Of a stretch of 64,000 nt of DNA, positions 14,187 through 29,411 are shown in pieces. The stretch lies in NCBI RefSeq assembly GCF_055900595.2, contig NZ_CM148325.1; one strand, 5' to 3'. The translations under genes and the position numbers were made by a program. The notes under the pieces were generated by a model. The model had not been told where the DNA came from. It saw nothing but the letters and a program-made list of their open reading frames with translations, and made no database searches. Each line of letters begins with the position of its first letter. The stretch's first letter is position 1.

Positions 14187-14774
14187 TCAGTTAACTGAAT
14201 CGATCCATTGCACACTGTCGGCGGTGAGCGTAAAGGGAGTAGGGGTGCAGATCGCCAGACTTAAATTTTCAAGCTGACAATGGCTGACTGACAGCGAGGA
14301 CTGATAGGTGCTGTCTACGCTGACGATTTGCCAGGCGCTGCCGCCACGTTGTTTAACGATAGCTTCTTTGCGTGTCCAGATGCGCCAGAACATTTCCAGT
14401 TGCTGATCTGGATGCACGGCGTCCATCTCGGCATGTTCTCCGAGGCTGAACACCGCGTTCGCCAGCCAGCGCCAGTTGGCACGCGGGCGAATCACTTCGA
14501 TATCGCAGCCGACTTCGCCCTCATCGCTCAACAGTAGGGCAATATCGTCACCGCTATGGCTTAAGTTGAACCATAGCGGCGTTTCCGGCGCGAATGCAGG
14601 TTTGCCTTGTTCGCCATAGATGATCTCAGGTAGCGGGGAAAGCGTGTGTGAAAGCAATGCACGCCCCGCCAGCCAGCGTTCGCGCCGTGGACCTTGCGGT
14701 GCTTTATCGCGTAAAGCCGGTGGCAGTGGAGCTGCGCTTAAGGTCGAAACTTTCCCCAGAACTATCCGATACAT
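14187..14774 (-). CDS. acpT: Sfp-type 4'-phosphopantetheinyl transferase AcpT
   Basis: 195 aa; WTRKEA-type PPTase motif (IWTRKEAIVKQRG). Start ATG 14772..14774 lies 1 nt after the stop of the upstream island KS gene. Confidence 0.9.
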   Translation of the reverse strand: MYRIVLGKVSTLSAAPLPPALRDKAPQGPRRERWLAGRALLSHTLSPLPEIIYGEQGKPAFAPETPLWFNLSHSGDDIALLLSDEGEVGCDIEVIRPRANWRWLANAVFSLGEHAEMDAVHPDQQLEMFWRIWTRKEAIVKQRGGSAWQIVSVDSTYQSSLSVSHCQLENLSLAICTPTPFTLTADSVQWIDSVN

Positions 14775-14775
14775 A

Positions 14776-16005
14776 TCAGGGCCAACGTTTTATGATGATG
14801 GATGTATTAATGCCGCCAAAGGCAAAGTTGTTACTCTGCAAAAACTCACAATCAATCTTGCGCGCTTCATGCATGATGTAATCCAGCTCGCCACAGTTAG
14901 GGTCTGGTTTATTCAGGTTTAGCGTAGGCGCAAACCAGCCTTCTCGCATCATTTGCAGACTCATCCAGGCTTCGAGCGCGCCACAGGCACCAAGCGTATG
15001 ACCAAAATAGCTTTTCAGCGAGGAGAGCGGCACATTATCACCGTAAATGGCTGCTGTCGCCAGACTTTCTGCCATATCACCACGATCGGTCGCCGTGCCA
15101 TGCGCTGAAATATAGCCAATATCTTGTGCGCTTAACCCGGCGATTTTCAGCGATTGCTCCATACAATACTGCATGGTTTCTCGCTGTGGTTGGGTGATAT
15201 GCGCGGCGTCGCAGTTAGTGGCAAAGCCGACGATTTCTCCATAAATGGTCGCACCGCGCGCTTTGGCGTGCTCCAGTTCTTCGAGAATCAGCGTGCCTGC
15301 GCCTTCGCCAATCACCAGCCCGTCGCGGTTTTCATCGAACGGTGAAGGGGTGGTTTTCGGCGCGTCATTATGCTGGCTGGTGGCGAAAAGCGTATCAAAT
15401 ACCGCCGCTTCTGAAGGGCATAACTCTTCGGCGCCACCAGCAACCATCACCGTTTGATAACCGTGACGAATGGCTTCCCACGCGTAGCCGATCGCCTGGC
15501 TGCCGGAGGTACAGGCGCTGGAGGTTGGGATCACCCGCCCGCGCAGGCCAAAAAATAGCCCGGTATTAACGGCGGTGGTGTGCGGCATCATCTGCACATA
15601 GGTGGTGCCAGTGATGTTATTGGTGTGCTTTTCAGTCAGCATGGTGGCGAACTCGCTCACCGGACCGGTACTGCCGGTCGATGAACCGTACGCAATGCCC
15701 GTTTCGCCGCTGGTTAATATCGGATCGCCAATCAACCCTGCCTGCTCTAACGCCAGCTCGCTGGCTCGGGTCGACATTTGCGACACGCGGCCCATCGCAC
15801 GGATACGCTTACGGGTGTAGTGCTCCGGTAGCGTAAAATCATCAATCGGCGCGCCAAGCAGGGTATGCAGGCCATCGTAAACCTGCCACTCCGGCATTTT
15901 GCGCACTGCGTTCTCATACGCCAGCAAACGCGCGGAAACGTCCTGCCAGTTTTCACCAAAGGCAGTCACGCCGCCCATTCCTGTAATCACTACGCGACGT
16001 GTCAT
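14776..16005 (-). CDS. apeR: beta-ketoacyl-ACP synthase (APE cluster, ApeR-like)
   Basis: 409 aa; KS active-site Cys in SSACTSG, His motifs HGTATDRGD and GHTLGACG; ATGA overlap with the upstream reductase gene. Confidence 0.85.
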   Translation of the reverse strand: MTRRVVITGMGGVTAFGENWQDVSARLLAYENAVRKMPEWQVYDGLHTLLGAPIDDFTLPEHYTRKRIRAMGRVSQMSTRASELALEQAGLIGDPILTSGETGIAYGSSTGSTGPVSEFATMLTEKHTNNITGTTYVQMMPHTTAVNTGLFFGLRGRVIPTSSACTSGSQAIGYAWEAIRHGYQTVMVAGGAEELCPSEAAVFDTLFATSQHNDAPKTTPSPFDENRDGLVIGEGAGTLILEELEHAKARGATIYGEIVGFATNCDAAHITQPQRETMQYCMEQSLKIAGLSAQDIGYISAHGTATDRGDMAESLATAAIYGDNVPLSSLKSYFGHTLGACGALEAWMSLQMMREGWFAPTLNLNKPDPNCGELDYIMHEARKIDCEFLQSNNFAFGGINTSIIIKRWP

Positions 16006-16733
16006 AACATCCCTCCGTTGATGGAAATAACCTGGCGGGTGACGTAACCCGCAATATCAGACATTAAATAACTGGCAAGCCCGGCAACTTCTTCCGCCTG
16101 GCCCATGCGTTTCATGGGGATCATCGACATTGCCTCTTTCAGAGCGCTCTCTTCCATTTCGATCATCCCGGTATCAATAAGCCCCGGCGCGATGCAATTG
16201 ACGGTGATTTTGCGCTTCGCGAGTTCGATAGCCAGTGCTTTTGTTGCGCCGATAATTCCGGCTTTGGCAGCACTGTAGTTCACCTGGCCGCGATTGCCCA
16301 TTACGCCGGAAACCGAGGACAGCGTGATGATGCGTCCGCCCTGGCGTGCGCCGATCATCGGCATAATGCACGGCTGAATGACGTTGTAGAAACTGTCGAG
16401 GTTGGTGTGGATCACCGCATCCCAGTCGTCATCGCTTAAAGCCGGAAAAGCGGCATCGCGGGCGATCCCGGCGTTACTAACCACGCCGTACCAGGCACCG
16501 TGTTGCGCGATCTCGTGCTCCAGCACTTCCCGACACTGTTCGCGGTTTGCGACGTCGAAACTGAGCAAACGCCCGTTACCACCGTTGGCGACAATGGCAT
16601 TCAGCGTTTCCTGAGCGCCTGCGGCGTCACGGTGATAGTGAACGCCAATGTTAAAGCCGTCTGCCGCCAGTTGGCAGGCGATGGCGCGACCAATGCCTTT
16701 GCTGGCACCAGTAACCAGAACTGAACGACTCAT
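16002..16733 (-). CDS. apeQ: 3-oxoacyl-ACP reductase, SDR family (ApeQ-like)
   Basis: 243 aa; TGASKGIGRAIA dinucleotide-binding motif and YSAAK catalytic motif. Confidence 0.85.
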   Translation of the reverse strand: MSRSVLVTGASKGIGRAIACQLAADGFNIGVHYHRDAAGAQETLNAIVANGGNGRLLSFDVANREQCREVLEHEIAQHGAWYGVVSNAGIARDAAFPALSDDDWDAVIHTNLDSFYNVIQPCIMPMIGARQGGRIITLSSVSGVMGNRGQVNYSAAKAGIIGATKALAIELAKRKITVNCIAPGLIDTGMIEMEESALKEAMSMIPMKRMGQAEEVAGLASYLMSDIAGYVTRQVISINGGML

Positions 16734-17197
16734 CAGGACGCTCCTTGTTGAAACAGGGTGGTAAGTTCTTCCGCAGTCGGCTGGAAGGTGTTAATGCGGC
16801 CCGTTGCCTCGCCGTCGTTGATGCTGCACTCAAAACTGCCGAAGCGTTCATCTTGCATCAGCAGTTTGACGGTAATGGTCAGCGTCTGGCCTGCGGGCAG
16901 AATGCCAGCGGCGCAAAGCAATTCACGCGCGCCCAGTACCATCCCTAACTCAATACTGTTTTTGCCCTGCTGGTGGCGATGCCAGCCAGACCAGACGCCG
17001 ACGGTTTGCGCCATCAGTTCAAGGGCAAACCAGCCAGGGAGATTGCCGTCCGGGTCGAGAAACGGTGCCAGTACACCACTGGGCGAAACCGTCACGCGGC
17101 ACACGGCGCTGTCATCGCTGACGCTCACCACTTCTTCCAGCAGCAACATGGGCGCATCGTGGGGCAGATAAGCGCCGGGTGATAAATAGTGGCTCAC
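16733..17197 (-). CDS. apeP: hot-dog fold dehydratase subunit (ApeP-like)
   Basis: 154 aa; GTG start at 17197 overlapping the stop of the upstream KS gene; call rests on size and cluster position. Confidence 0.65.
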   Translation of the reverse strand: MSHYLSPGAYLPHDAPMLLLEEVVSVSDDSAVCRVTVSPSGVLAPFLDPDGNLPGWFALELMAQTVGVWSGWHRHQQGKNSIELGMVLGARELLCAAGILPAGQTLTITVKLLMQDERFGSFECSINDGEATGRINTFQPTAEELTTLFQQGAS

Positions 17198-18363
17198 GAA
17201 ACCCTCCCGAGCAGAATGCTGGCGTTATTGCCGCCAAAGGCGAAAGAATTGGACAGGATCACCGGACGTGCCAGCGGCTGTGGTTTTTCGATAATGCCGC
17301 ACGGTGGCAGCGTGGGATCGCGTGGCGACAGGCTGAAGTCCTGAGCGGGCAGCGGTAAATCACGCTCTAAGATCAACGTGCTAATTGCCGCCTCGGTAAT
17401 GCCCGCCGCGCCCAGCGTGTGTCCGGTCAAATGTTTGGTGGAGCTGCACGGTACGCGTTCGCCAAACAGGGCGTTAACCACCATTGATTCAATCTGGTCG
17501 TTGAGTTGTGTGGCGGTGCCGTGCAGGTTGATATAGCCCACCTCATCCGGCGTAAGCTGCGCATCGTTCAGCGCCTGGTTAATAGCGCGGATCGCCCCTT
17601 CGCCCTGCGGATGCGGGGCCGAAATATGATAAGCGTCGCTTGATTCACCAACGCCCAGTAACGCGATGGGCTGCGGTTCACGGGTCAGCAGCATTAGCCC
17701 CGCGCCTTCGCCAATGGTGATGCCCGCACGGTCACGACCGAACGGCTGACATAAGGTGGGCGACAGCGATTCGAGGCTGTGAAAACCGTTAATCGGCATC
17801 CGGCTCAGAGTGTCTGCGCCACCCACAATGGCGGCATCGACCAGCCCCGCTTCGATAAGCCTGCGCCCGCTGATCATCGCTCTGGCGCTGGAAGAGCAGG
17901 CGGTTGAAAGAGTATATGCCGGGCCGTCGAGCGCCAGCCAGTGGCTGAGAAAACGCGACGGATCGCCGAGTTCTTGTTGTGCATAGTGCCATGTGGTGCT
18001 TGGCTGCCCGTGGGTGCGCAGGTTAACGTGCGTGTCGCCTTCATGCAGGCCGGAGGTGCTGGTGCCAAGCACAATCGCGATGCGCTCGCGGCCATATTTT
18101 GCGATGGCGTCATCAACCTGCAGCTGGATCTGCGCCAGCGCCGCCAGCAGGATCTGATTGTTGCGCGAGCGGTGCGCAGCGAATTTTTCCGGGATAAGCG
18201 GAAGCTCGCCATCCACGCCAGCCAGGACCGCCTGCGGATGCCCCTGCAACCAGCCTGCGCGTGGGCGCATTCCGGGAGCAACACCGCGAGTCAGGTTGGC
18301 TGCGATCTCATCAAGATTATTTCCCAGGGCGTTGATCATGCCAACGGCGGAAATATAAATCAT
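17194..18363 (-). CDS. apeO: beta-ketoacyl-ACP synthase (ApeO-like)
   Basis: Active-site Cys in LSTACSSSA, His motifs LHGTATQ and GHTLGAAG. Start is either GTG 18372 (track) or ATG 18363. Confidence 0.8.
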   Translation of the reverse strand: MIYISAVGMINALGNNLDEIAANLTRGVAPGMRPRAGWLQGHPQAVLAGVDGELPLIPEKFAAHRSRNNQILLAALAQIQLQVDDAIAKYGRERIAIVLGTSTSGLHEGDTHVNLRTHGQPSTTWHYAQQELGDPSRFLSHWLALDGPAYTLSTACSSSARAMISGRRLIEAGLVDAAIVGGADTLSRMPINGFHSLESLSPTLCQPFGRDRAGITIGEGAGLMLLTREPQPIALLGVGESSDAYHISAPHPQGEGAIRAINQALNDAQLTPDEVGYINLHGTATQLNDQIESMVVNALFGERVPCSSTKHLTGHTLGAAGITEAAISTLILERDLPLPAQDFSLSPRDPTLPPCGIIEKPQPLARPVILSNSFAFGGNNASILLGRVS

Positions 18364-18364
18364 A

Positions 18365-18949
18365 TTAGTCACCTAAGTATTGAATGGTGATGTGGTATTT
18401 AAAGACATGCTGCTCAATGCTGATTGGCACGCGTTTTCCTTTGCGATTCAAATAGGTGATTTCCGTGACCAGTTTGCCGCTGGCGTTACGCAGTTCGCGT
18501 TTGTCACCGTTGTCACGAAGTGTCCATCCTGCGGGAAGTTGCGGTTGCCAGGCGCTAATCGGCCAGTGGCTGAGCATTACGTCAGCCAGCACCTGACTTG
18601 CTGGCGGCAACTGTGGGACGACGATGGATTGCTCGGCGCGTAGCCCTTGCGCATCGTAGGTCACCAGAAACAGACGAATGCCGACTGATGACAGTCCGGC
18701 AAGGGTGATTTTCTGGTCGTCGGCATTAAGCATCACCAACAGCGACTGGGTTTTGCCGTTGAAGCTGCCAGTCAACAGTTGTTGGGAATTGACGGCGGGT
18801 GAAATCCCCGGCGCAGGCAGCGTGATGCGTGTGCCAGGTTGCAGCCACGCCTGCGGGCGGCCTTCCTGTTCCGGTTGCGAGTGGCTACAGCCGGTGAGGA
18901 TAAGCGTAGCGGTCAGGGCGAGCGCCCGCCAGAAGGTGGGTTTGATCAT
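18365..18949 (-). CDS. apeN: DUF3261-like outer-membrane lipoprotein (ApeN-like)
   Basis: 194 aa; signal peptide with lipobox LTGC; ATGA overlap with the MMPL gene stop. Confidence 0.7.
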   Translation of the reverse strand: MIKPTFWRALALTATLILTGCSHSQPEQEGRPQAWLQPGTRITLPAPGISPAVNSQQLLTGSFNGKTQSLLVMLNADDQKITLAGLSSVGIRLFLVTYDAQGLRAEQSIVVPQLPPASQVLADVMLSHWPISAWQPQLPAGWTLRDNGDKRELRNASGKLVTEITYLNRKGKRVPISIEQHVFKYHITIQYLGD

Positions 18950-21261
18950 TTTTTTGTTCTCTTTTTATCGGGCATAGCCAGCGGCGAAAGCAGGAAGGCG
19001 GTGAAAATACCGCTCACCAGCACAATGCCAAAACTGCTGATGGCCTGAGTGGCGCTGAATACCAGCATTCCCAGCGTCAGCAAGGTGGTGAGCATTGCCA
19101 GCGTGATCGCCAGTAGGGAAGTTAACGGTGTACCGCGCGGATTACTGAAAAACAGCGTGTAGTTGATGCCGATGCCAAGCACCAGCACCAGCGCCAGCAG
19201 CGAAAAGAGATTCACCGCCTGCCCGCTCATCGCCAGCACTGCCAGACCGCAGCCCAGCGAAAGCACCGAAGGCACCAGGCTGATAAGCCCTTTGCGCCAG
19301 CCAAGGCGGGCCACTGCGCCGCAGGCAATCACTGCCAGCGCCACCAGCAACAAACCGGTTAAGACGTGGCGGTAAAGTGCGAACAATTCATCAAAAGTGT
19401 TTTTGCGATCAACCCAGGCAATGCCCTGGTAATAGCTGGCTGTTTCCTGCAACAACGCGCTACTTTTAACCCCTTCAACCGGCACCAGTACGCCGCTTGC
19501 GCCGTTTTCCAGCGTCAGCCACAGCAGACGCCAGCCTTCACTGGCGGGGCTTGCCAGCCATTCATCGACCTTCACTGGCATGGCGTTGAGATCTGGTTTC
19601 ACCGCCGTCAGCCCGGCATTTTGCAGCGCTTTTGTTACCGTCGGGGCAGACGTTTTCAGCAGATGTAAATCTTCCTCCTGCCGCACCAGGGAGTTCAGCG
19701 GAATAGTGCGGTAGTTGCTGATAAGACCGTCTTTTTTCGCTTTCTCCAGCGAGGCGGTAAATGTCTCCAGCCGCCGCAATGTTTGCTGTGGCGAATCGCC
19801 GTAAACCACAAACCATTTTTGATCGACGCTTTGTCCGGTCAGGGCGGTAATGGCTTTTTCCTGCGCCAGAATATGCTGCGGCAGCGCCTGTAACTGCGAG
19901 ATATCGTCATCGACGCGCAGCATTGACATCCCCGCCAGCGAAAACAGCGCCAGCGCGACGGGCAGACCCCGCGACAGTTTTTTATTGCGCCGCCACGCCG
20001 CCAGCCAGCGCAGCATCAGCGCCATCGCCGGAACCGGACGCACCGGCAGGCCACGGCACAGCCACGGATGCCAGAACAGAACGGTCAGACAGGAGGCGCT
20101 CAACCCGACGGCGGCAAAAATCGCCATCTGGCGAATGCCGGGGAAGGGGGCGAGCATCATAATCAGATACGCCGCCACGGTGGTGAGCAGCGCCAGTAGC
20201 AAGGCATTGCGCACTTTCGCCAGGCTTTGCCACGGCGAAACGTCATTGCCGTGCACCATCCGTTCAGTGAGGTAATAGAGCGTGTAGTCAGCGGAAATGC
20301 CGATAACGCTCATGCTCATCACCAGCGTCATCAGGTGTAATTCACCGAAAATCAACAAGGTGGCGACCGTTCCCGCCAGCGCGCCAATGCCGATGGAAAT
20401 CACGCAAAGCAGCAACGGGCGTAAAGAGCGGAACACCGCCACAATCAGTAATATCACCCCCAGCAGCGTTGCCACGCCCAGGGTTGAGATATCCTGCTTC
20501 GCCTGTTGACTGGCGTAATCGCTGTAAAATACCGTGCCGCGCGAGAGCAACTGCGCCTGCGGGTAACGCGTTTTCAGATCCTTTTCCAGCGTATTCAGGG
20601 TGGTGATGAGCTGGTGGGTTTGCTGCATATCAAACGACGATCCCGCCAGTTCTCCGTGTAGCAGATACCAGTAGTTGCCCTGGGGATCCTGCGTCACCAG
20701 CCAGCCGTCCATCAGTCGTAAACGCTGACCGTTTTTCGCCATCGCCAGCTGCGAGCCGCGCATTAACATCAGCGGATCGTTTTGCAGCTCCTTGCCGCTT
20801 ACCCCGGAGAACGCAGAATAAAGCTGGGAGAGGATCCACTGCGCCTGCGCTTCACCGCCGTTTTGTAGTCGGGCGCGAGTGTCGGGGTCAATCAGGCCGT
20901 TGCGATGCTGCCAGAAAAACGCTCCCCACGCCTGCTGGCTGGCGGCATCCATTGGCCCTTTAACATCGCCGAGCGCAGCGGATTTTTGCAGCAGCGTCAG
21001 CCATTCCTGAGCGACCAGGGGATTAGCCTCTTTACCGGGGCTGACCAGCCACACCAGTTGGCGGTCCAGACGCTGCATAAAGCCGTCATTCAGCGCCGGG
21101 GGAATATCGCCCATCGCCTGTTTGGGTAACATAGCCAGCACGCTACTGTTCAGTCGTGATTGCGGCAGCAGGATCAGCAACGCCGCTGCCATGACCAGGC
21201 AGATGATCCCCCATAACAGCGCCGGGCGTTTACTGGGCGGCAAAACGTTGGCGTTCGTCAT
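18946..21261 (-). CDS. apeM: MMPL/RND-superfamily predicted exporter (ApeM-like)
   Basis: 771 aa with two clusters of TM helices separated by soluble domains. Start 21261 overlaps apeL by 32 nt; an alternative ATG at 21192 is possible. Confidence 0.75.
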   Translation of the reverse strand: MTNANVLPPSKRPALLWGIICLVMAAALLILLPQSRLNSSVLAMLPKQAMGDIPPALNDGFMQRLDRQLVWLVSPGKEANPLVAQEWLTLLQKSAALGDVKGPMDAASQQAWGAFFWQHRNGLIDPDTRARLQNGGEAQAQWILSQLYSAFSGVSGKELQNDPLMLMRGSQLAMAKNGQRLRLMDGWLVTQDPQGNYWYLLHGELAGSSFDMQQTHQLITTLNTLEKDLKTRYPQAQLLSRGTVFYSDYASQQAKQDISTLGVATLLGVILLIVAVFRSLRPLLLCVISIGIGALAGTVATLLIFGELHLMTLVMSMSVIGISADYTLYYLTERMVHGNDVSPWQSLAKVRNALLLALLTTVAAYLIMMLAPFPGIRQMAIFAAVGLSASCLTVLFWHPWLCRGLPVRPVPAMALMLRWLAAWRRNKKLSRGLPVALALFSLAGMSMLRVDDDISQLQALPQHILAQEKAITALTGQSVDQKWFVVYGDSPQQTLRRLETFTASLEKAKKDGLISNYRTIPLNSLVRQEEDLHLLKTSAPTVTKALQNAGLTAVKPDLNAMPVKVDEWLASPASEGWRLLWLTLENGASGVLVPVEGVKSSALLQETASYYQGIAWVDRKNTFDELFALYRHVLTGLLLVALAVIACGAVARLGWRKGLISLVPSVLSLGCGLAVLAMSGQAVNLFSLLALVLVLGIGINYTLFFSNPRGTPLTSLLAITLAMLTTLLTLGMLVFSATQAISSFGIVLVSGIFTAFLLSPLAMPDKKRTKK

Positions 21262-21835
21262 CGGTCAGTTGCGCTGGCGTCAGTTGATGTTGGGTAAGAG
21301 CGATATCGGTGCGATCGCCCTGTTTATCATTAAGCTGAATGCTCTCCAGATAGGTTTGCCCGGCGAGATCGATGGTATTGAAAATTTTATCCAGCGGCGT
21401 GGTGGTCGGCGTCAGGCGCAGCGTCCAGCGGCCTTCGCCTTTGTCAGCAAATTCGACGCGGAAGTTTTGTTCCAGCACTTTGCGATCGGCCTGGAACAGC
21501 GCGCGCAGCAGGTGGTTAAACTGGAACATCTGCGGGTTATTTTCTGCCGTGATGATTTGTGGCGGCTGACCGTTGATCACCTGCACCATGCGTTTATCGT
21601 CCAGTAATAGCTGCATGGGGAACGGTGAGGTTTGATCCCACAACAGCCCCTGGTCGCGGGCGATCAACATCTGCCCCTGCGATCGCAGCGGTTGCGGCAG
21701 ATCTTTAATCGTCCGGGTTTGATCGAAATGGGCGCGGATCACCGGCTGTTCGGTAAAGCGTTGCTGAAGATCGTCCAGGGTCAGGGCGCTCACAAACGGG
21801 CTAATCAGCAGCGCCAGCAGCGGTAAAAATTTCAT
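21230..21835 (-). CDS. apeL: LolA-like outer-membrane lipoprotein carrier protein (ApeL-like)
   Basis: 201 aa; cleavable signal peptide (MKFLPLLALLISPFVSA); LolA-like size. Confidence 0.7.
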   Translation of the reverse strand: MKFLPLLALLISPFVSALTLDDLQQRFTEQPVIRAHFDQTRTIKDLPQPLRSQGQMLIARDQGLLWDQTSPFPMQLLLDDKRMVQVINGQPPQIITAENNPQMFQFNHLLRALFQADRKVLEQNFRVEFADKGEGRWTLRLTPTTTPLDKIFNTIDLAGQTYLESIQLNDKQGDRTDIALTQHQLTPAQLTDDERQRFAAQ

Positions 21836-22254
21836 GGTTTGACTCCCATGCGTTCAAACAGAATATCGGGGCTGACAAAGCACAGTTCGCGGCTTTGCTC
21901 GTCGACCGCGACCTGAATGGTGTATCCGGTGGTGGCGCGTTTGCCCGTTTCGGCATCGAAAATCTGATAGCCAATTCGCAGGCGGTTTTCGAACTCTTCG
22001 ATATGCGCACGCACGCGGATGCGTTGCTCAAAGGTGAGGGCGTGGCGATATTTCACCCGCGCATCGACCACTGGCCACAAATAACCCGACTCTTTCATCT
22101 GCCGATAGCCGTAATTGAACTGGTTGAGCAGCGCCTCGCGGGCCACTTCAAAGTAGCGAAAATAGTTACCGTGCCAGGCCACGCCCATCATATCGACGTC
22201 GTGAAATGGAATGATCAGCTCGACTTCAGCGGTAAATCGGGGATCGTTAAGCAC
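21832..22254 (-). CDS. apeK: 4HBT/YbgC-type hot-dog thioesterase (ApeK-like)
   Basis: 140 aa; HDVDMMGVAWHGNYFRYFE thioesterase motif; GTG start. Confidence 0.75.
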   Translation of the reverse strand: MLNDPRFTAEVELIIPFHDVDMMGVAWHGNYFRYFEVAREALLNQFNYGYRQMKESGYLWPVVDARVKYRHALTFEQRIRVRAHIEEFENRLRIGYQIFDAETGKRATTGYTIQVAVDEQSRELCFVSPDILFERMGVKP

Positions 22255-22257
22255 CCT

Positions 22258-23934
22258 TTACTCCTTGTCCTGGACTTCCGGCAGTTGCCAGAAATCGAAA
22301 AAATTAAACCAGTCGAGGGGCGACTGGAGCGCGTGATGTTCCAGACGCGCGGCGTAATGATCGATAGCGTTTTGCAGCGCCTGCTGGCGTTCGCCACGCG
22401 GCAACAGCAGCGGGTCGGCAAAGGTTTCGCAGTTAATATGCAGCTTGCCGTGCTGGCGCAGGGCGAAAATCAGATTCACCGGGCAGCGCAAAATAGACGC
22501 GAGAATAAACGGCCCCTGTGGGAAGGGCGCAGGCTGGCCCATAAACGAACTCCAGCAGACGCGCCAGTCGCCGCCGCGTTGCGGGTTGATGGCGATGCGG
22601 TCACCAACAATCGCCACCCATTCGCCGTTATCCAGCTTCTCTTTTAGCAGGATGGCGGTGTCCGGGCCGATATCCGTCACCGGCATCAGGTTAATGCCTG
22701 CCTGAGGAGCCATCTCCTGCATTATCTGTTTAAAGCGTTGGGCGTTTTCGCTAAACACCAGCGCGTTAATGGTTTTGTAGCCCTGAATTTTTGCCAGCGC
22801 CCGGCACACTTCCACATCGCCAAGATGCGAGGCCAGCAGCAATTTGCCGCGCGGATCGCTGACGTTAAGTGCCGCTTCTGCGCCTGGTGCAAACAGCACA
22901 TCACGCCCGAGTTGCAGCTCGCCGCGCCAACTGGCGATTTTGTCGAGCATGGCGTTGCCGAAACGTAGAAAGTGCTGATAGCTGTTGAGTTTTGCTGCCT
23001 GTGGTTGATGCTGGCGCACACGGGCGAGCCAGTCTTGCGACGCTTTGCGCGCCCGGCTGGCGGTGAGCCAGTAGACGCCCACCACCGGATAAAGCAGCGC
23101 GGTAAACGCCGTTCTTCCCAGCAGGCGCCAGACCAGCAGCATCAGGCGCATTCCCCATAATCCTTTCACTTCGCTCTGCCGCGCCCAGTGGCTGGAAGAG
23201 TGGCGCATCAGCAGCGAAGGAATACGCGGCAACATGCCGAAAAACAGGCGCGTGTGCATGAGCGAGATGCGGACGTTATCTTTCAGGGCATCAAAGTGCG
23301 AAAGCCCGTCCAGCGGATAGGTGACGCGGGTCGGCACGAAATAGCTGGTGTTTCCCTGCCAGTAGAGGCGCACCATCACTTCGGTGTCGAAATCCATCCG
23401 CTTGCCGATGGTGGCGTGTTTTGCCAGTTGCAGCGTTGGCGCAACCGGATAAACGCGAAAGCCGCACATGCTGTCTTTCAGTTGCAGGGAGAGCGTTTCG
23501 ACCCATACCCAGATGTGGGTGACCCAGCGCCCGTACAGCCGTGAGCGGGGGATGGAGTCATCGTAAATTGGCTGGCCGGAGATCAGTGCCGCAGGGTGTT
23601 GTTCAGCGAGTGCCAGCAGTTTGGGGATATCTTCAATCGCGTGCTGACCGTCGGCATCTACCTGTACCGCATGGCTGAACCCCGCGTCTGCCGCTGCCTG
23701 TAAGCCGCGCATTACCGCCGCGCCTTTGCCTGCGTTTTCTGCCAGGCGAATTAATGTCACGCCAGGCTGTTCGGCAACCAGATTATCCAGTTGCTGTTGC
23801 GTGGCGGCATCGCTGCCGTCATCCACCACAATACAGGGCAGATTAAATGGCTTAAGACGCGCCAGCACGCCCGGCATCATTGCGCCGTGGTTGTAGCAGG
23901 GGATCAACACGCAGGGAGAAAAGTTTACCGACAT
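22258..23934 (-). CDS. apeJ: family-2 glycosyltransferase fused to a C-terminal acyltransferase-like domain (ApeJ-like)
   Basis: 558 aa; N-terminal GT-A fold signature (CYNHG...VVDDGSDA), longer C-terminal domain. Confidence 0.7.
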   Translation of the reverse strand: MSVNFSPCVLIPCYNHGAMMPGVLARLKPFNLPCIVVDDGSDAATQQQLDNLVAEQPGVTLIRLAENAGKGAAVMRGLQAAADAGFSHAVQVDADGQHAIEDIPKLLALAEQHPAALISGQPIYDDSIPRSRLYGRWVTHIWVWVETLSLQLKDSMCGFRVYPVAPTLQLAKHATIGKRMDFDTEVMVRLYWQGNTSYFVPTRVTYPLDGLSHFDALKDNVRISLMHTRLFFGMLPRIPSLLMRHSSSHWARQSEVKGLWGMRLMLLVWRLLGRTAFTALLYPVVGVYWLTASRARKASQDWLARVRQHQPQAAKLNSYQHFLRFGNAMLDKIASWRGELQLGRDVLFAPGAEAALNVSDPRGKLLLASHLGDVEVCRALAKIQGYKTINALVFSENAQRFKQIMQEMAPQAGINLMPVTDIGPDTAILLKEKLDNGEWVAIVGDRIAINPQRGGDWRVCWSSFMGQPAPFPQGPFILASILRCPVNLIFALRQHGKLHINCETFADPLLLPRGERQQALQNAIDHYAARLEHHALQSPLDWFNFFDFWQLPEVQDKE

Positions 23935-24278
23935 AGGCGGATCTTCCCGCTACTGGCGGTGTGGCGGGCGTCACCGTCGTGACGCTGATAACTAAAGCTC
24001 AGAATCTGGCGTTCTTCCTGCCAGCTAAGCGTGAGTGTGACGCGGTTATCCGGCAGCAATGGAGCCTGGAATTTGATGTTCTGAATGGAGTGAAAACGCC
24101 AACCGGGCGCGAGCAGGGCAAGCGCGTAACTCATCGCCCAGTCGATTTGCGCCACGCCAGGGAGTAATGGTTGTACGGCAAAATGACCGCGAAACCAGAA
24201 CAGATCTGCCCTGAGATGCAAAACAATCTCAAGGTGATTCACTTGTGCCTGATGGCGCTCGATTTCATGGGGCTTCAT
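23925..24278 (-). CDS. apeI: FabZ-like 3-hydroxyacyl-ACP dehydratase (ApeI-like)
   Basis: Hot-dog dehydratase motif FRGHFAVQPLLPGV. ATG at 24278 preferred over the track GTG at 24308, which would overlap apeH by 44 nt. Confidence 0.75.
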   Translation of the reverse strand: MKPHEIERHQAQVNHLEIVLHLRADLFWFRGHFAVQPLLPGVAQIDWAMSYALALLAPGWRFHSIQNIKFQAPLLPDNRVTLTLSWQEERQILSFSYQRHDGDARHTASSGKIRLCR

Positions 24279-25626
24279 GAAATAACTCCTGTAATTGCGC
24301 ATAGACACGCTTGTTCATACTGTTTACTGGCATTTCATCAATAACGCGCCAGTAACGCGGAATAGCAACTGGCTCCAGCGTCGGGCGCAGTAATCGCCGC
24401 CAGGCCATTTCCTGGCTGTGCCCGCCGCCGTTTTGCCATTGCAGGCGAGCTTCGTCATCCAGCACCAGCAAAACGCCAATACTCTGACGTCCGCCGCGCG
24501 TAACGGGAACTGCCGCCGCCTCGCGAATACCGTCCAGCGCCAGCAGACGTTGTTCTACTTCCTGGAGTGAAATACGTTTTTCTTCAATCTTAACGATGCG
24601 CCCACGACGCCCCATCAGATGGAACTGACCGTCCTGGCTAAACTGCAAGAGATCATCGAGTAACAGGCCGTTATCTTCCGCTATCAGCGGTGAAAAGAGG
24701 CGAAATGCTTCACCTTCGGCCTGGAACTGCACACCTGGGAAGGGTAGCCAGCGGCGTTGCTCTTGTTCGCGGTAACGCCAGGCGATGACGCCGGTTTCCG
24801 TGCTGCCGTAGATTTCATCAGGCCAGACGCGCAGCCAGCTCGCGGTATATTGTACGTCCTGCCACGGCAGCTCACCGCCAGCAGAGAGAAGCACCTGAAC
24901 GGGCGGCGGAGAAAGCTGGGTATCCAGCCGTTTCAAAAATGCCGGGCTGCTGATGAAGATATAGCGATGCTGGTGACTCAATGCGGCAAACTGTTCGACA
25001 TACCAGAGCATGGCGGCGTGCAGCGGTAATCCCAGCGCCATTGGCAGGAAAACGCGAAAAGTCAGGCCGTACAAATGCTGCGGCAATACGGAACCGACGA
25101 CACGACATCCGGCAAGACGTGCGCCTAATCGTTCAGCCAGCAGTTCTGCTTCACGGTCCAGCAAATGAACAGGTTTAATTACCCGCTTTGGCTGCCCCGT
25201 AGAACCGGAGGTAAACAGCTCGATATAAGCGTCTGGCGCTATAGCGGCAAAGGTGAATGATTGTGTCGCGACTTGTGGGGAGCTTGCTACCAACAGCAAT
25301 GAACCTTGCCAGTTAAGTTCGCTGTCGCTAAGCACACCATCGAACAGTTCACGTTGCTCGTTAAGCTGGATGACGCGGTTATGCCCCGGAAGCACCGGTG
25401 TTTTTCCGGCGTGTAGCGTGGCGAGCAGGGCAACGATAAACAGATAGCAGTCCTCAAAGCACAGCGCCCAGCGTTCACCTGGTTGTTGCTGTAAACGGCA
25501 GATAAGTTGCGAGACATCGTGACGCAAATCGCCCAGCGTCCAGGTGCTTTCGTCCAGCCACGCAATGGGCGTGTCATCAGGGCGTGGCGCAGTCAGCCAG
25601 CGTGCAAGCGGTAAGGTCTGCTTCAT
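24265..25626 (-). CDS. apeH: AMP-dependent acyl/aryl ligase (adenylate-forming; ApeH-like)
   Basis: Adenylation P-loop FTSGSTGQPKRV. ATG at 25624..25626 forms an ATGA overlap with the apeG stop; the track start 25665 is an extension. Confidence 0.8.
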   Translation of the reverse strand: MKQTLPLARWLTAPRPDDTPIAWLDESTWTLGDLRHDVSQLICRLQQQPGERWALCFEDCYLFIVALLATLHAGKTPVLPGHNRVIQLNEQRELFDGVLSDSELNWQGSLLLVASSPQVATQSFTFAAIAPDAYIELFTSGSTGQPKRVIKPVHLLDREAELLAERLGARLAGCRVVGSVLPQHLYGLTFRVFLPMALGLPLHAAMLWYVEQFAALSHQHRYIFISSPAFLKRLDTQLSPPPVQVLLSAGGELPWQDVQYTASWLRVWPDEIYGSTETGVIAWRYREQEQRRWLPFPGVQFQAEGEAFRLFSPLIAEDNGLLLDDLLQFSQDGQFHLMGRRGRIVKIEEKRISLQEVEQRLLALDGIREAAAVPVTRGGRQSIGVLLVLDDEARLQWQNGGGHSQEMAWRRLLRPTLEPVAIPRYWRVIDEMPVNSMNKRVYAQLQELFHEAP

Positions 25627-26204
25627 GAGCGATCTCTTTTCATCACCTGACGGCGCACCAGCCATTCACCAGCCATTAACGTCCCCATCAACAAATAAGC
25701 AATCATGCCGTTCCAGGCAGTCCATAACGACATATCGCCATGCAGCGCGGTAAAGAGGGCAATTCCGCCGTTGATGATGAAAAAGCCGCACCAGATTTGC
25801 GTGACGTGGCGGGTATAGCGCACGCCCTTTTCCGGGAGGTCTGGCTCCTGCAAACGCGCCAGCCGCTCAACAATTGGCATTGCCGACCACAGCGAACCGC
25901 CAAAAACCGCCAGCATTACCGCGTTAACCACTACCGGGTAAAACAGCAGTAGCTGGTGCGTTTTCAACAGAAAGCTGGCGACACACAAGGCGATACCCAC
26001 GACAGCGACGATTTGTGTGACGGCTTGTAGCGGCTCGGCCTGGCAACGAGTCTGGCGCAGGCGCAATAAAAGCAGCAGCGCCATCAGCGGCAACAGCCAG
26101 TGCAGGCCGTTATGTGCCAAACCAAGCCAAATCACAAACGGCCAGGCGAGCAGTAATAATCCGGTCAGCAGTTTAATAATCGGTAGCGAGCGAATGCCCG
26201 ACAT
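25623..26204 (-). CDS. apeG: polytopic inner-membrane protein of unknown function (ApeG-like)
   Basis: 193 aa, about five hydrophobic helices; ATG 26202..26204. Confidence 0.65.
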   Translation of the reverse strand: MSGIRSLPIIKLLTGLLLLAWPFVIWLGLAHNGLHWLLPLMALLLLLRLRQTRCQAEPLQAVTQIVAVVGIALCVASFLLKTHQLLLFYPVVVNAVMLAVFGGSLWSAMPIVERLARLQEPDLPEKGVRYTRHVTQIWCGFFIINGGIALFTALHGDMSLWTAWNGMIAYLLMGTLMAGEWLVRRQVMKRDRS

Positions 26205-26208
26205 CAGA

Positions 26209-26460
26209 TCAGGCTTCTTGTAGCAGGCGTTCTACGGCCTCTACGACATCCTGGACTGTACGCACTGCTTTAAACTCTTCCGGCTTGATTTTCTTACCGG
26301 TTTTCTTTTGCAGATGCACAATCATGTCAACGGCGTCGATGCTGTCCAGTTCCAGATCTTCGTACAGGCGCGCTTCAGGTTTGATGTCCTGCGGATCGAT
26401 TTCAAACAGCTTAACCAGCAGAGCTGAGACTTCCTGATAGACGGTTTGTTGTTCTGTCAT
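26209..26460 (-). CDS. apeF: acyl carrier protein (ApeF-like)
   Basis: Pantetheine attachment motif LELDSIDAVDM. ATG at 26460 (MTEQQ...) or the track GTG at 26475. Confidence 0.8.
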   Translation of the reverse strand: MTEQQTVYQEVSALLVKLFEIDPQDIKPEARLYEDLELDSIDAVDMIVHLQKKTGKKIKPEEFKAVRTVQDVVEAVERLLQEA

Positions 26461-26471
26461 GATGGCTTTCC

Positions 26472-26729
26472 TCACGCACGTTGTGCAGCAATAAAAGAGG
26501 CCAGAGTGGCGACAGAGAAAAAGTGCTGACGCATCTCTTCACTTTCCGCAGAAAGTACAACGCCATATTCATTTTTTACTGCCAGCCCCAGTTCCAGGGC
26601 ATCGATGGAATCCAGCCCTAAACCGTCGCCGAACAGCGGCGCATCGGTCTCGATATCATCAGGAGTCAACTCGTCCAGATTGAGGGTGCTGATGATGAGG
26701 TTTTTAATTTCCAGATAAAGCGCTTGCAT
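26472..26729 (-). CDS. apeE: acyl carrier protein (ApeE-like)
   Basis: 85 aa; LGLDSIDALEL motif; ATG 26727..26729. Confidence 0.8.
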   Translation of the reverse strand: MQALYLEIKNLIISTLNLDELTPDDIETDAPLFGDGLGLDSIDALELGLAVKNEYGVVLSAESEEMRQHFFSVATLASFIAAQRA

Positions 26730-27525
26730 TATTTATTCCTGAGAGAGGTAAACAACCTTGTTGTAATTGAAGCAAAAGATGCCGGTTTAACTGCCTTGCT
26801 GCCAGCGCCGGTTCTTGTGAAGTTGCAACGTAAAATTTATTGATTTCAACCCGATCATGGACTTCAACCGTAAAAAACGGCCTGGCAGGTGGAACGTCAT
26901 ACCATTTACTTTGTTTATCCAGCAGATGCTCGCTACAGCCGATCGTCACGATGCGTAAATCGCTGGCACAGCGCACGGCAATATTCGCCGCCCCGCGCTG
27001 CAGCGTCATTTTTTCACCGGGCTTCGTTCGCGTGCCTTCGGGGAAAATCAAGATAGTGTCGCCCTGTGCCAGTCGCTGTTGGCAGCGGGGTAACAGGGTT
27101 TCAGCTTCGCTGTTGATTAAATAATCTGCCGCCCGCACAACGCCGCCAAGAAAAGGATTTTTTAACAGCGCGCTTTTCACCAGGCAGTCAGTTTCTGGCA
27201 TGACTGACGCCAGCAGTACGTAATCGATAAGCGTGGGATGATTAGCTACGACGAGGCAACCGCGTTCCTGACGTAAAATTTCAGCGCCATCAATACGATA
27301 ATCCAGCACGCCAAGCCCTTTCGCGACAGTTAAAAACAGGCGAAAACTGGCGGCAATGCTGCGACGCGCCAAACGACGGCGGCGGGAAGTATCCCACACC
27401 AAAACTAACAATATGTTAAACCACACGACAGAAAGCAGCAGGCCGCCGAGACCAAACAGGGCAAAACACAACCCGGTCATAACCAGTCGCCATGTCCATT
27501 CCAGGCGTGACATCAGCTTACTCAT
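26704..27525 (-). CDS. apeD: PlsC-like lysophospholipid acyltransferase (ApeD-like)
   Basis: 273 aa; N-terminal TM anchor; HX4D acyltransferase motif NHPTLID; ATGA overlap with the apeC stop. Confidence 0.75.
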   Translation of the reverse strand: MSKLMSRLEWTWRLVMTGLCFALFGLGGLLLSVVWFNILLVLVWDTSRRRRLARRSIAASFRLFLTVAKGLGVLDYRIDGAEILRQERGCLVVANHPTLIDYVLLASVMPETDCLVKSALLKNPFLGGVVRAADYLINSEAETLLPRCQQRLAQGDTILIFPEGTRTKPGEKMTLQRGAANIAVRCASDLRIVTIGCSEHLLDKQSKWYDVPPARPFFTVEVHDRVEINKFYVATSQEPALAARQLNRHLLLQLQQGCLPLSGINNASALSGN

Positions 27526-28244
27526 CTACGGCTCCAGCGCCACTGTACGCGCTCACCAGGAAGTGAAAAAGCATCTGAATTTTGTAAATAGTGCTGTAAA
27601 AACAACATGCTTTGCGGCAGTGTTGTTTCATTGCCCGCAATGGCTGGCTGTGTTTCACATTGCCACTCATCGCCAGCTTCAATCACCAGCGCAACAGCAT
27701 ATGGCCAGGTCGGCATTTCTGCTGGGAGCTGCGGATGATAGAACTCAGGTAGAAAGCCATCAAAATCGACCATCAACACGCGCTGGTATCCCGCTTGTAA
27801 CAGGCTAAGCACTTCACACAAACCTTGCTGGAAAGTGTCGCGACCAGCCGAAAGCGATGAGGAAACGATCGGTTGTTTGGCCGCAATGGTCAGGTTACCC
27901 ACGGAAGAGTTGTGTACGGAGAGCGCGAAGTCCGTCGGAGAGAGCGCCTGTTCGGTTGCCAGTGCATGAACAATGCGGTAATTGCGCTCCAGCTCGCCAT
28001 GACGACTGGTATACAAAACGGCGTCTGGCTGATGGTGGCGTAGCATTGCCAGACCGCACTCCACGGCCAGTTTGCTGCCAGAACTGAGACGGCGGGCGGT
28101 CATCATTGGCAGTTCACTTAATTTTGCCAACGGTGCGGCAGGGTCAACCGCCCACGGCTGGCGCGACCATGCTTGCCATTGCTGGGCTTCGCTAAGTCCA
28201 GGCGCCAGTGCCTTCCAGTCGGTAATATTTAATGTAAATTTCAT
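27522..28244 (-). CDS. apeC: truncated KS-like protein lacking the active-site Cys motif; chain-length-factor-like partner (ApeC-like)
   Basis: About 240 aa with no TACSS-type motif. ATG at 28244 (MKFTLNI...) preferred over the track TTG at 28268. Confidence 0.6.
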   Translation of the reverse strand: MKFTLNITDWKALAPGLSEAQQWQAWSRQPWAVDPAAPLAKLSELPMMTARRLSSGSKLAVECGLAMLRHHQPDAVLYTSRHGELERNYRIVHALATEQALSPTDFALSVHNSSVGNLTIAAKQPIVSSSLSAGRDTFQQGLCEVLSLLQAGYQRVLMVDFDGFLPEFYHPQLPAEMPTWPYAVALVIEAGDEWQCETQPAIAGNETTLPQSMLFLQHYLQNSDAFSLPGERVQWRWSRR

Positions 28245-28284
28245 CAACGCGCGCCCGCGGTAAACCAAAATTATTAAGTGACGA

Positions 28285-29343: not shown

Positions 29344-29411
29344 GTTGGGCACAACCTGTTAAGAGGGAATTAAATTATTATCGGACCGAAGCGGCCCGAC
29401 TTTAGGGGAAA

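Follow-up and report, generated by a model that had tools for sequence, protein, structure and literature searches.

The apeJKLMN genes of an Escherichia coli aryl polyene cluster and the probable export of a pigment lipid

How a bulky lipid that is not a protein crosses the periplasm is a question on which the export of aryl polyenes (APE) bears. Few biosynthetic gene clusters of Gram-negative bacteria are as widespread as those for APE, pigments that protect cells against oxidative stress and promote the formation of biofilms (PMC8253772). The window analyzed here, a stretch of 64,000 nucleotides, is a 100% match to E. coli chromosomes, and all of its genes carry RefSeq names. Positions 18365-23934 hold apeJ-apeK-apeL-apeM-apeN, the half of the E. 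coli APE cluster that is concerned with lipid attachment and export. The products of these genes probably attach the pigment to a sugar-phospholipid and carry it to the outer membrane by means of RND, LolA-like, and LolB-like proteins.

The system is known, and the window holds one more copy of it; the gene functions and the export model have already been published. The reading offered by the initial annotation of this DNA is essentially that published model (Johnston 2021; Grammbitter 2020). What is added here is a predicted LolB-type fold for DUF3261, a putative assignment of the two halves of ApeJ, and the recognition of PDB entry 8T5J as an ApeL orthologue.

Gene order and distribution of the ape module

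The APE cluster is composed of 18 genes and is sited between acpT/nikA and yhhT (Table 1). This site is shared with the O157:H7 genomes that carry the module, whereas in Nissle 1917 the cluster lies in an island with IS remnants. Of 5426 complete E. coli genomes, 825, including Nissle 1917 and O157:H7, carry the 5.6-kb apeJ-N module, at an identity of 95.8-100%. Between Nissle 1917 and the window, the cluster is ~96% identical at the DNA level, and the gene-by-gene annotation is identical. We take Nissle 1917 to be a close relative of CFT073, the strain in which the genetic study of the cluster was done.

The apeK and apeL reading frames overlap by 4 nt, apeM starts 32 nt inside apeL, and the apeM stop codon and apeN start codon share an ATGA. 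The initial annotation had described an MMPL/RND gene overlapping a LolA-like gene and a lipobox lipoprotein gene; all three are present where it placed them, and the overlaps are real. It had also reported a PlsC-like acyltransferase with an HX4D motif, which exists (apeD) but lies 2.8 kb outside the interval. The fifth gene of the interval, apeK, went unmentioned.

The order J-K-L-M(-N) is kept in 78 species-level genomes, and J-K-L-M-N spans Enterobacterales to Myxococcota. Most of the 78 other-species loci yielded the order C-D-E-F-G-H-I-J-K-L-M-N-O-P-Q-R, which takes in the type II PKS core (KS, CLF, two ACPs, DH, and KR) as well as the transporter, and the full apeA-to-apeR order is also seen in other genera. 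Because the identical order recurs in 78 species-level genomes, the gene set is not a chance pattern. Extra genes found in the J-K or M-N gaps of Vibrio and Shewanella were considered as export genes and set aside, since they look like starter or tailoring enzymes. Judged by eye, an ASG motif points to an aromatic ammonia-lyase-like protein, and an N-terminal GAGPSG dinucleotide-binding motif points to an FAD-dependent halogenase-like protein.

Table 1. Positions of the ape genes and domains discussed in the text, counted from the first letter of the window
Feature	Position	Strand	Description
apeN	18365-18949	minus	DUF3261 lipoprotein, 194 aa
apeM	18946-21261	minus	MMPL/RND-superfamily inner-membrane transporter, 771 aa
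apeL	21230-21835	minus	LolA-like carrier, predicted periplasmic, 201 aa
apeK	21832-22254	minus	4HBT (YbgC/FadM-type) thioesterase
apeJ	22258-23934	minus	Bifunctional glycosyltransferase/acyltransferase, whole gene, 558 aa
apeJ, GT2 (GT-A) domain	23215-23913	minus	N-terminal, ~residues 8-240, polyprenyl-phosphate glycosyltransferase type
apeJ, LpxL/LpxM/PatA-type acyltransferase domain	22285-22887	minus	C-terminal, ~residues 350-550
apeG	25623-26204	minus	Small polytopic membrane protein
apeD	26704-27525	minus	PlsC/AGPAT-type lysophospholipid acyltransferase
apeA	29412-29801	minus	Small lipoprotein, first gene of the cluster
Complete aryl polyene (ape) cluster, apeA to apeR	14776-29801	minus	RefSeq annotation of identical sequence

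Probable attachment of the pigment to a glycolipid

The product of the Xenorhabdus doucetiae cluster has been solved. In this molecule, an ester bond links the APE to the 6-OH of GalNAc, and the GalNAc is joined via a phosphate to a diacylglycerol with a conjugated C26:5 acyl chain and a C14/C16 chain (bioRxiv 10.1101/2020.12.19.423268). The initial annotation had proposed that the polyketide is attached to a lipid or glycolipid anchor and had called the acceptor lipid and the sugar unknown. Lipid anchoring is supported, because the structure of the product is solved for the Xenorhabdus orthologue and the domains of ApeJ and ApeD are consistent with its chemistry. With GalNAc-phosphate-diacylglycerol identified in X. 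doucetiae, the second statement is out of date for the family.

ApeD matches TIGR00530 (E 3.4e-15; 56 bits, below the cut-off of 103), has an N-H-X4-D motif (NHPTLID, residue 96), and is named 'lysophospholipid acyltransferase family protein' in RefSeq. Deletion mutants of the orthologue suggest that ApeD would transfer the long conjugated acyl chain onto a lysophospholipid, giving a phosphatidic-acid-like lipid. In X. doucetiae, an acyl-cFA-glycerol-phosphate (acyl-cFA-G3P) intermediate builds up when apeJ is deleted (bioRxiv 10.1101/2020.12.19.423268). In E. coli, deletion of apeD or apeJ leaves the pigment in place as late intermediates (PMC8253772).

ApeJ is the GT2-acyltransferase fusion noticed at first reading, an assignment borne out by a Pfam GT2 match in the N-terminal half (residues 8-130, E 2.7e-20) and by profile matches to LpxM and PatA in the C-terminal half. 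With a family profile, the N-terminal half matches DPMS (5mlz, 7.8e-17), GtrB (5ekp, 1.6e-13), and ArnC (1.3e-11), and its D93-A-D95 (DXD) motif is invariant in 89 sequences. Among the NCBIfam models, it scores best against PpgS, a polyprenyl-phospho-GalNAc synthase (E 2.6e-14; 53 bits, below the cut-off of 370), a match that is only suggestive as a pointer to the sugar donor or acceptor. The acyltransferase half has no Pfam match from the single sequence, though a weak single-sequence match to PRK07920, a PIM acyltransferase, was found. The family profile was needed to match residues 350-545 to LpxM (5kn7, E 1.8e-9) and PatA (5f2t, E 2.7e-5). H370, G372, E/D375, and D445-R446 are conserved in 89/89 sequences, and H370 with E/D375 forms the catalytic-type HX4(E/D) motif. 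The two domains are likewise fused in 980 cluster representatives (E<=1e-30), and a protein of Xenorhabdus ehlersii is 65% identical to ApeJ. In Francisella, two separate genes take the place of apeJ, one for GT2 and one for Lip_A_acyltrans, the latter with a weak PF03279 match.

By sequence, the two halves of ApeJ match lipid-phosphate glycosyltransferases and sugar-acylating LpxM/PatA enzymes, respectively, and these matches are new support for its proposed role. The GT2 half would add a hexosamine to the lipid phosphate, a step that fits the intermediate seen on apeJ deletion; in Xenorhabdus this sugar is GalNAc. The LpxM/PatA-like half would then transfer the aryl polyene from its ACP to the 6-OH of the sugar, forming an ester, by analogy to the action of PatA on the mannose 6-OH of PIM. 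ApeK matches NCBIfam TIGR00051 (E 1.4e-16), is named 'acyl-CoA thioesterase' in RefSeq, and turned up in most of the 78 related loci, in 73 with a single-sequence search and in 76 with an iterated one. Its thioesterase activity may serve in the editing or release of acyl-ACPs.

The transporter and its putative periplasmic partners

ApeM is a member of a family named APPE in the literature (bioRxiv 10.1101/2020.12.19.423268), and APE metabolites are lost when apeM is deleted in E. coli (PMC8253772). Only one half of the protein matches Pfam MMPL by sequence (residues 252-402, E 8.6e-8). Hydropathy reveals ~12 hydrophobic segments and two large loops, which fits a 12-TM RND topology: TM1 is followed by a loop at 33-257 and a TM bundle, and then by the other loop at ~451-632 and another TM bundle. 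The match to the HpnN structure 5khn has an E of 3.6e-6. NCBIfam matches to HAE3, HpnN, and BstA reach 19-50 bits, compared to cut-offs of 352-1400, and because all scores fall below the equivalog cut-offs, ApeM is placed in a subfamily apart from HpnN, BstA, and MmpL. Among 71 sequences, D325-Y326 is found in 70 and Y701 in 71; at position 700, 49 have D and 22, E. coli included, have N, a point against the proposed mechanism. ApeM retains the MmpL-type Asp-Tyr motif, the membrane-embedded acidic residues of which would serve proton coupling. The motif lies in TM4 and TM10, the helices that carry it in MmpL3.

ApeL starts with a hydrophobic, signal-peptide-like segment read from the sequence, MKFLPLLALLISPFVSA, followed by VSA|L. 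It matches Pfam LolA (E 1.6e-11) and LolA_3 (E 5.5e-11), and its family profile matches LolA of Pseudomonas aeruginosa (2w7q, 3.9e-10). Against NCBIfam LolA2_flexi, it scores 55 bits (E 6.5e-15; cut-off 125). Because its score against the NCBIfam lolA model TIGR00547 (60.3 bits) is below the equivalog cut-off of 112, ApeL is assigned to a paralogous subfamily and not to the housekeeping LolA. Its AF2 model (pLDDT 92) predicts the LolA fold, an unclosed beta-barrel with a helical lid. The best Foldseek match is 8t5j (E 1.5e-16, target-normalised TM 0.88), followed by LolA of E. coli, P. aeruginosa, and Yersinia (E 1e-8 to 1e-11); LprG is also among the fold matches. 8T5J is an ApeL orthologue that has already been crystallised under a generic LolA name. 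No relevant publication was found in the literature for this PDB code or for a crystal structure of an APE LolA-like protein.

ApeN matches Pfam DUF3261 (E 3.4e-39). Its lipobox is L-T-G-C21 with a Ser at +2, and the lipobox Cys is invariant in 55 orthologues; ApeN is thus a lipoprotein with a predicted outer-membrane sorting signal. A single-sequence search against solved structures gave no match, Pfam LolB is absent, and the family profile is not significant against Vibrio cholerae LolB (E 0.43). The same profile matched designed WRAP-T repeat proteins, a hit that we regard as spurious. A profile-profile comparison of ApeN with ApeL (hhalign, probability 0.4%) gave no relationship. The first homologue search listed only relatives more than 80% identical and was too shallow for structure prediction; diverse ApeN sequences were drawn from genome loci found through ApeJ. 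The predicted fold is nearest to LolB, which is a computational confirmation of a LolB-type fold for DUF3261. Since the sequence comparisons gave no relationship to LolB or ApeL, the link to LolB is one of predicted structure.

A Lol-like hand-off of the APE lipid has been proposed before (Table 1 and Fig. 8 of PMC8253772; bioRxiv 10.1101/2020.12.19.423268). This hand-off is plausible, and it is strengthened by the finding that the predicted fold of ApeN is nearest to LolB and that of ApeL is nearest to LolA. ApeM, through its conserved Asp-Tyr pair and the proton gradient, would take the three-tailed glycolipid out of the inner membrane, or flip it, and hand it to the LolA-fold protein ApeL in the periplasm. 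ApeL would pass it to the LolB-fold lipoprotein ApeN at the outer membrane, and ApeN would insert the lipid. For its own prior delivery to the outer membrane, ApeN would depend on the housekeeping Lol system. We judge this whole mechanism, from glycolipid attachment through RND extraction and hand-off to the Lol-dependent placement of ApeN, to be somewhat better than evenly supported.

The distribution of the partners bears on a second reading, in which ApeM suffices for export or flipping, the lipid uses general phospholipid routes, and ApeL and ApeN are periplasmic chaperones or stabilisers that, for example, hold hydrophobic intermediates or shield the polyene. ApeL is found alongside ApeM in 73/73 loci, and their reading frames overlap, which argues against this reading. 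ApeN accompanies ApeM in 61/72 loci; it is absent from 11 loci that have both ApeL and ApeM (the Burkholderia group, Helicobacter aurati, and a Pseudomonas), so a LolB-like step is not universally required. To our knowledge, HpnN and MmpL3 are described as operating without LolA-like partners, which also suits this reading, yet ApeN, with its conserved lipid anchor, is nearest in predicted fold to LolB, the superfamily's membrane-inserting member. The cited APE literature shows no lipid binding by ApeL or ApeN, no transport by ApeM, and no ape-dependent outer-membrane localisation, and so offers no experimental evidence for the hand-off (bioRxiv 10.1101/2020.12.19.423268; PMC8253772). The E. 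coli study did not yield scar-free deletions of apeL and apeN, and its results may include polar effects (PMC8253772). Overall, we consider it unlikely that ApeM acts alone in this manner.

The cluster opens with the small lipoprotein gene apeA, the product of which has the lipobox LAGC20 and a weak Lpp/OprI-like match (E 0.0032). ApeL and ApeN could then be a private LolA/LolB pair that sorts the lipoproteins of the cluster (ApeA and perhaps ApeN) to the outer membrane, possibly with the aryl polyene attached to such a lipoprotein, while ApeM alone moves the pigment lipid. We know of no cargo demonstrated for the LolA/LolB folds in Proteobacteria other than triacylated lipoproteins. This option was raised by Johnston et al., who found that apeA deletion in E. 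coli keeps the color while the mature lipid is gone (Johnston 2021, PMC8253772). De Smet et al. allow both options for LolA2/LolB2 (PMC11885536). However, ApeA was detected in 29 of the 78 related loci and ApeL in 75 by iterated search, so ApeL is conserved where ApeA is not found, with the caveat that a short divergent apeA may escape detection. The solved Xenorhabdus product, moreover, is a free glycolipid that carries no peptide. On balance, dedicated lipoprotein sorting is improbable.

An outer-membrane location has been demonstrated for the related xanthomonadins only and is assumed for APE (bioRxiv 10.1101/2020.12.19.423268; PMC8253772). This leaves room for a pigment lipid that remains in the inner membrane, with ApeL, ApeM, and ApeN engaged in retrograde transport or quality control. 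APE expression, though, alters cell surface behavior such as aggregation and biofilm formation (PMC8253772). A LolB-fold lipoprotein of the outer-membrane type, as predicted for ApeN, suits an acceptor role. All characterised RND/MMPL lipid transporters that we know of export outward. We hold the inner-membrane reading to be very improbable.

ApeG has ~5 hydrophobic segments and no significant match in Pfam or NCBIfam. It was recovered in 75 of the 78 related loci by iterated search and in 72 by single-sequence search, and apeG is conserved together with apeL, apeM, and apeN. The literature has proposed it as a member of the export set. Its published description as a 'COG4648 pyrophosphatase' that energises transport is left unsupported, because Pfam and NCBIfam return no significant match.

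Returning to export by hand-off, the initial annotation had called the route separate from the housekeeping Lol and Lpt systems. This is only partly right. Since its +2 residue is not Asp, ApeN should need LolCDE, LolA, and LolB to reach the outer membrane, and the export route would therefore not be fully independent of Lol. If an RND pump does feed LolA-like and LolB-like proteins, it would be a distinct lipid trafficking route across the periplasm. Whether ApeM-ApeL-ApeN forms a third envelope route of its own next to Lpt and Lol, as earlier work has proposed, with a proton-driven RND protein in place of an ABC transporter, a LolA-fold carrier, and a LolB-fold inserter, we regard as evenly balanced; the fold and synteny evidence mildly favors it.

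Comparison with known systems

The ape clusters of E. coli CFT073 and X. doucetiae (Cimermancic 2014; Grammbitter 2019/2020; Johnston 2021) have the same apeJ-N genes in the same order. For CFT073, the published functions (PMC8253772, Table 1) agree with the predictions made for the window, and the functional content is not different.

The N-terminal half of ApeJ resembles DPMS, GtrB, ArnC, and PpgS and keeps the invariant DXD, and the C-terminal half resembles LpxM and PatA and keeps the invariant HX4(E/D). The reaction proposed for ApeJ by analogy is of the type carried out by PatA, which adds an acyl group to the 6-OH of a glycophospholipid sugar. Unlike these enzymes, ApeJ has both activities in one polypeptide, and its scores are below the equivalog cut-offs. 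The expected acceptor is a phosphatidic-acid-type lipid instead of a polyprenyl phosphate, and the expected donor is aryl-polyenoyl-ACP.

ApeM is, like HpnN (hopanoids), MmpL3 and MmpL7 (mycobacterial lipids), and BstA-B-C (sterols), an RND protein of the MMPL/HAE3 type. These systems move a bulky lipid towards the outer membrane, and the mycobacterial MmpL systems use the LolA-fold lipoproteins LppX and LprG. ApeM differs in being shorter (771 aa) and in having as partners a soluble LolA-like protein and a LolB-like lipoprotein.

Flexirubin clusters of Bacteroidota also encode a LolA-like and LolB-like pair, LolA2/LolB2, within a pigment cluster (De Smet et al. 2025, PMC11885536). The same transport role as for ApeL and ApeN has been hypothesized for this pair (PMC11885536). 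The flexirubin clusters belong to another phylum and make another pigment ester, flexirubin being a dialkylresorcinol ester.

A further parallel is the housekeeping pathway for lipoprotein sorting, LolCDE-LolA-LolB. ApeL is predicted to be a LolA-fold periplasmic carrier and ApeN a lipid-anchored LolB-fold protein, and the APE cargo, with three hydrophobic chains according to the solved structure, would resemble the triacylated N-terminus of a lipoprotein. ApeL is ~15-17% identical to E. coli LolA. In the ape system, an RND/MMPL protein that presumably draws on the proton gradient takes the place at the inner membrane of the ABC transporter LolCDE, and the presumed ape cargo is a glycolipid instead of a protein.

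Gene content of the interval

The stretch at window 18365-23934, on the minus strand, is bounded precisely by the apeN end and the apeJ start and contains five genes of the aryl polyene (APE) cluster. The window is E. coli chromosomal DNA, and the 20 kb around the stretch are 100% identical to several complete E. coli genomes. In the RefSeq annotation of an identical sequence, the cluster is a co-directional, minus-strand gene run between acpT/nikA and yhhT. The identity of the genes in the interval is nearly certain. The overlaps reported by the initial annotation are real: apeM starts 32 nt within apeL, and the apeM stop and apeN start share the sequence ATGA. The apeK and apeL genes also overlap, by 4 nt. 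The initial annotation was otherwise accurate, but it omitted apeK, and its PlsC-like acyltransferase with an HX4D motif, which does exist, is ApeD, encoded outside the interval.

Window coordinates of the APE cluster, its export and acylation genes, and acpT
Feature	Window position	Strand	Description
APE biosynthetic gene cluster apeA-apeR	14776-29801	minus	RefSeq annotation of identical sequence
apeN	18365-18949	minus	194 aa, DUF3261 lipoprotein
apeM	18946-21261	minus	771 aa, MMPL/RND transporter
apeL	21230-21835	minus	201 aa, LolA-like protein
apeK	21832-22254	minus	140 aa, 4HBT thioesterase
apeJ	22258-23934	minus	558 aa, GT2-acyltransferase fusion
apeG	25623-26204	minus	small protein, ~5 TM segments
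apeD	26704-27525	minus	PlsC-like acyltransferase; NHPTLID at residue 96; TIGR00530 E 3.4e-15
acpT	14187-14774		phosphopantetheinyl transferase gene

The acpT gene directly adjoins the cluster, and its product would serve the two ACPs encoded there. Over the leftmost part of the window (1-4000), the G+C content falls to 34-41%, which coincides with yhiJ and an adjacent DUF4049 pseudogene interrupted by an internal stop.

The system is already known. In strain CFT073, Johnston et al. 2021 (PMC8253772) described ApeJ as a glycosyltransferase/acyltransferase, ApeK as a thioesterase, ApeL as LolA-like, and ApeM as an RND transporter, and listed ApeN as "DUF3261 - LolB-like". Their export scheme (Fig. 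8) is the one inferred by the initial annotation: a Lol-like hand-off of a lipid-anchored polyene to the outer membrane. Grammbitter et al. 2020 (bioRxiv 10.1101/2020.12.19.423268) also proposed ApeM, ApeG, ApeL, and ApeN for outer membrane delivery. This reading is thus the standing published hypothesis and not a new one; it agrees with the literature and is partly supported here. In the genetic work of Johnston et al., deletion of apeD or apeJ left pigment in the form of late intermediates, deletion of apeM abolished detectable APE metabolites, and no clean deletion of apeL or apeN was obtained (PMC8253772).

ApeJ and assembly of the lipid

The initial annotation considered the sugar and acceptor lipid unknown, but for this family both are known. 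The Xenorhabdus end products were solved by Grammbitter et al. (bioRxiv 10.1101/2020.12.19.423268) and have a glycerol-phosphate-GalNAc backbone carrying a C26:5 conjugated acyl chain, a C14/C16 acyl chain, and an aryl polyene esterified at the GalNAc 6-position. The orthologue product is thus an aryl-polyene-GalNAc-phosphate-diacylglycerol. On the basis of deletion mutants, the same authors proposed a role in its assembly for ApeD, which would place the conjugated chain, and for ApeJ, which would attach the polyene.

The GT2-acyltransferase fusion in ApeJ was confirmed. Residues 8-130 match Pfam GT2 (E 2.7e-20), and among NCBIfam models the polyprenyl-phospho-GalNAc synthase PpgS is nearby for the N-terminus, well below cut-off. 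The acyltransferase half has no Pfam match from the single sequence. A profile built from 89 diverse full-length relatives matched DPMS (5mlz, 7.8e-17), GtrB (1.6e-13), and ArnC (~1e-11) in the N-terminal half, and LpxM (5kn7, 1.8e-9) and the PIM acyltransferase PatA (5f2t, 2.7e-5) across residues 350-545. D93-x-D95, H370, G372, E/D375, and D445-R446 are kept in all 89 sequences. By sequence, the two halves resemble enzymes that glycosylate lipid monophosphates and enzymes that acylate glycolipid sugars. Independent support for the two-domain reading comes from Francisella philomiragia (locus L082, 7902-9571), where ApeJ is split into two adjoining genes encoding a GT2 protein (249 aa) and a Lip_A_acyltrans protein (307 aa). 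Judging from these domain similarities, the GT2 half would transfer a hexosamine to a lipid phosphate, much as polyprenyl phosphate is glycosylated by DPMS, ArnC, and PpgS, and the LpxM/PatA-like half would form the ester between the sugar and the polyene carried by the ACP. ApeK, near the YbgC/FadM thioesterases but well below the NCBIfam cut-off, may act in acyl-ACP editing or release.

Conservation and distribution

The gene order C-D-E-F-G-H-I-J-K-L-M-N-O-P-Q-R recurs among 78 loci from other species, spanning Enterobacterales, Vibrio, Shewanella, Aeromonas, Burkholderiales, Alphaproteobacteria, Myxococcota, and Helicobacter. ApeL is found alongside ApeM in 73 of 73 loci, and ApeN is present in 61 of the 72 with sufficient downstream sequence. 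ApeL and ApeM are retained in the Burkholderia group, Helicobacter aurati, and one Pseudomonas, where no DUF3261/ApeN gene was detected within 10 kb (loci L044, L045, L049, L050, L055, L061, L063, L068, L069, L076, and L081). In a less probable rival reading, ApeM alone would suffice for export and ApeL and ApeN would be accessory chaperones; the lineages without ApeN favor this view.

Vibrio and Shewanella-type loci carry additional genes, assigned by eye from their sequences. In Vibrio loci (L017, 11739-13316), a gene resembling an aromatic ammonia-lyase separates apeJ from apeK, and in Shewanella-type loci (L028, 16927-18192), a gene resembling an FAD-dependent halogenase or oxidoreductase separates apeM from apeN. 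Both are apparently lineage-specific insertions into the export block, with starter or tailoring functions.

Of 5426 complete E. coli genomes, 825 carry the module at >=95% identity, among them O157:H7, ETEC H10407, and Nissle 1917. In ~566 of these 825 genomes, the cluster is at the nik/acpT site. The Nissle 1917 copy (~96% identical; L083) has a different location, on an island that also contains IS remnants and a hemagglutinin pseudogene. The APE cluster thus occupies two different chromosomal sites in E. coli.

The proposed export route

ApeM matches Pfam MMPL (E 8.6e-8) and lies near the HAE3, HpnN, and BstA models of NCBIfam, well below their cut-offs. Its layout is RND-type: a large loop separates TM1 from a first TM bundle, and another large loop separates this bundle from a second one. 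In the first bundle, D325-Y326 is kept in 70/71 orthologues. In the second, Y701 is kept in 71/71, and residue 700 is split between Asp (49 orthologues) and Asn (22 orthologues); E. coli is among those with Asn, so its second motif reads Asn-Tyr. Asp-Tyr pairs form part of the described proton relay of MmpL3, and the ApeM motifs mirror them. The sequence argues for ApeM being proton-driven rather than energised via ApeG by ATP or pyrophosphate. In published papers, ApeG is called a COG4648 pyrophosphatase and was suggested to energise export. It has no significant family match in Pfam or NCBIfam, though an iterated search found it kept in 75 of the 78 loci.

ApeL matches Pfam LolA (E 1.6e-11) and LolA_3 (E 5.5e-11). 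It scores 60 bits against the NCBIfam LolA model (cut-off 112) and is also near the flexirubin LolA2 model, well below cut-off. Its structure, predicted with diverse orthologues gathered from the 78 loci, has a pLDDT of 92.0. In Foldseek it is closest to 8t5j (E 1.5e-16, 31% identity); canonical LolA structures come next, among them E. coli LolA with bound lipoprotein. PDB entries 8T5J, 9COZ, and 9CWL were deposited as "LolA" of F. philomiragia but are really an ApeL orthologue (L082, 10001-10585). The ApeL family profile matches 8T5J at 2.9e-43, compared to 3.9e-10 for a genuine LolA, and the gene is in an APE-type cluster, adjoining 4HBT, MMPL, and DUF3261 genes. A solved structure of an ApeL-type carrier thus already exists.

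ApeN matches Pfam DUF3261 (E 3.4e-39). It has the lipobox LTGC21 with Ser at +2, and the lipobox Cys is invariant across 55 orthologues. Sequence methods gave no link between ApeN and LolB; the published "LolB-like" label for DUF3261 is supported by predicted fold, not by sequence membership.

We consider it fairly probable that the three proteins form a hand-off. ApeM would draw on the proton gradient to pull the three-tailed lipid out of the inner membrane, ApeL would shield it in the periplasm, and ApeN would insert it in the outer membrane. Johnston et al. (PMC8253772) raised that ApeL and ApeN might instead sort the cluster lipoprotein ApeA, a reading weakened by the finding of ApeA in no more than 29 of the 78 loci. 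Retention of the lipid in the inner membrane is unlikely given the surface phenotypes (PMC8253772). The initial annotation held the ApeM-ApeL-ApeN route to be separate from the housekeeping Lol system; since ApeN is an outer-membrane-type lipoprotein in its own right, the route cannot be wholly independent of that system.

A LolA-fold carrier for this lipid is chemically reasonable by analogy, because the product, with its three hydrophobic chains, is similar to the triacylated lipoprotein N-terminus that LolA naturally binds. An analogous pair to ApeL/ApeN, LolA2/LolB2, occurs in flexirubin clusters, where its role has been proposed (De Smet et al. 2025, PMC11885536).
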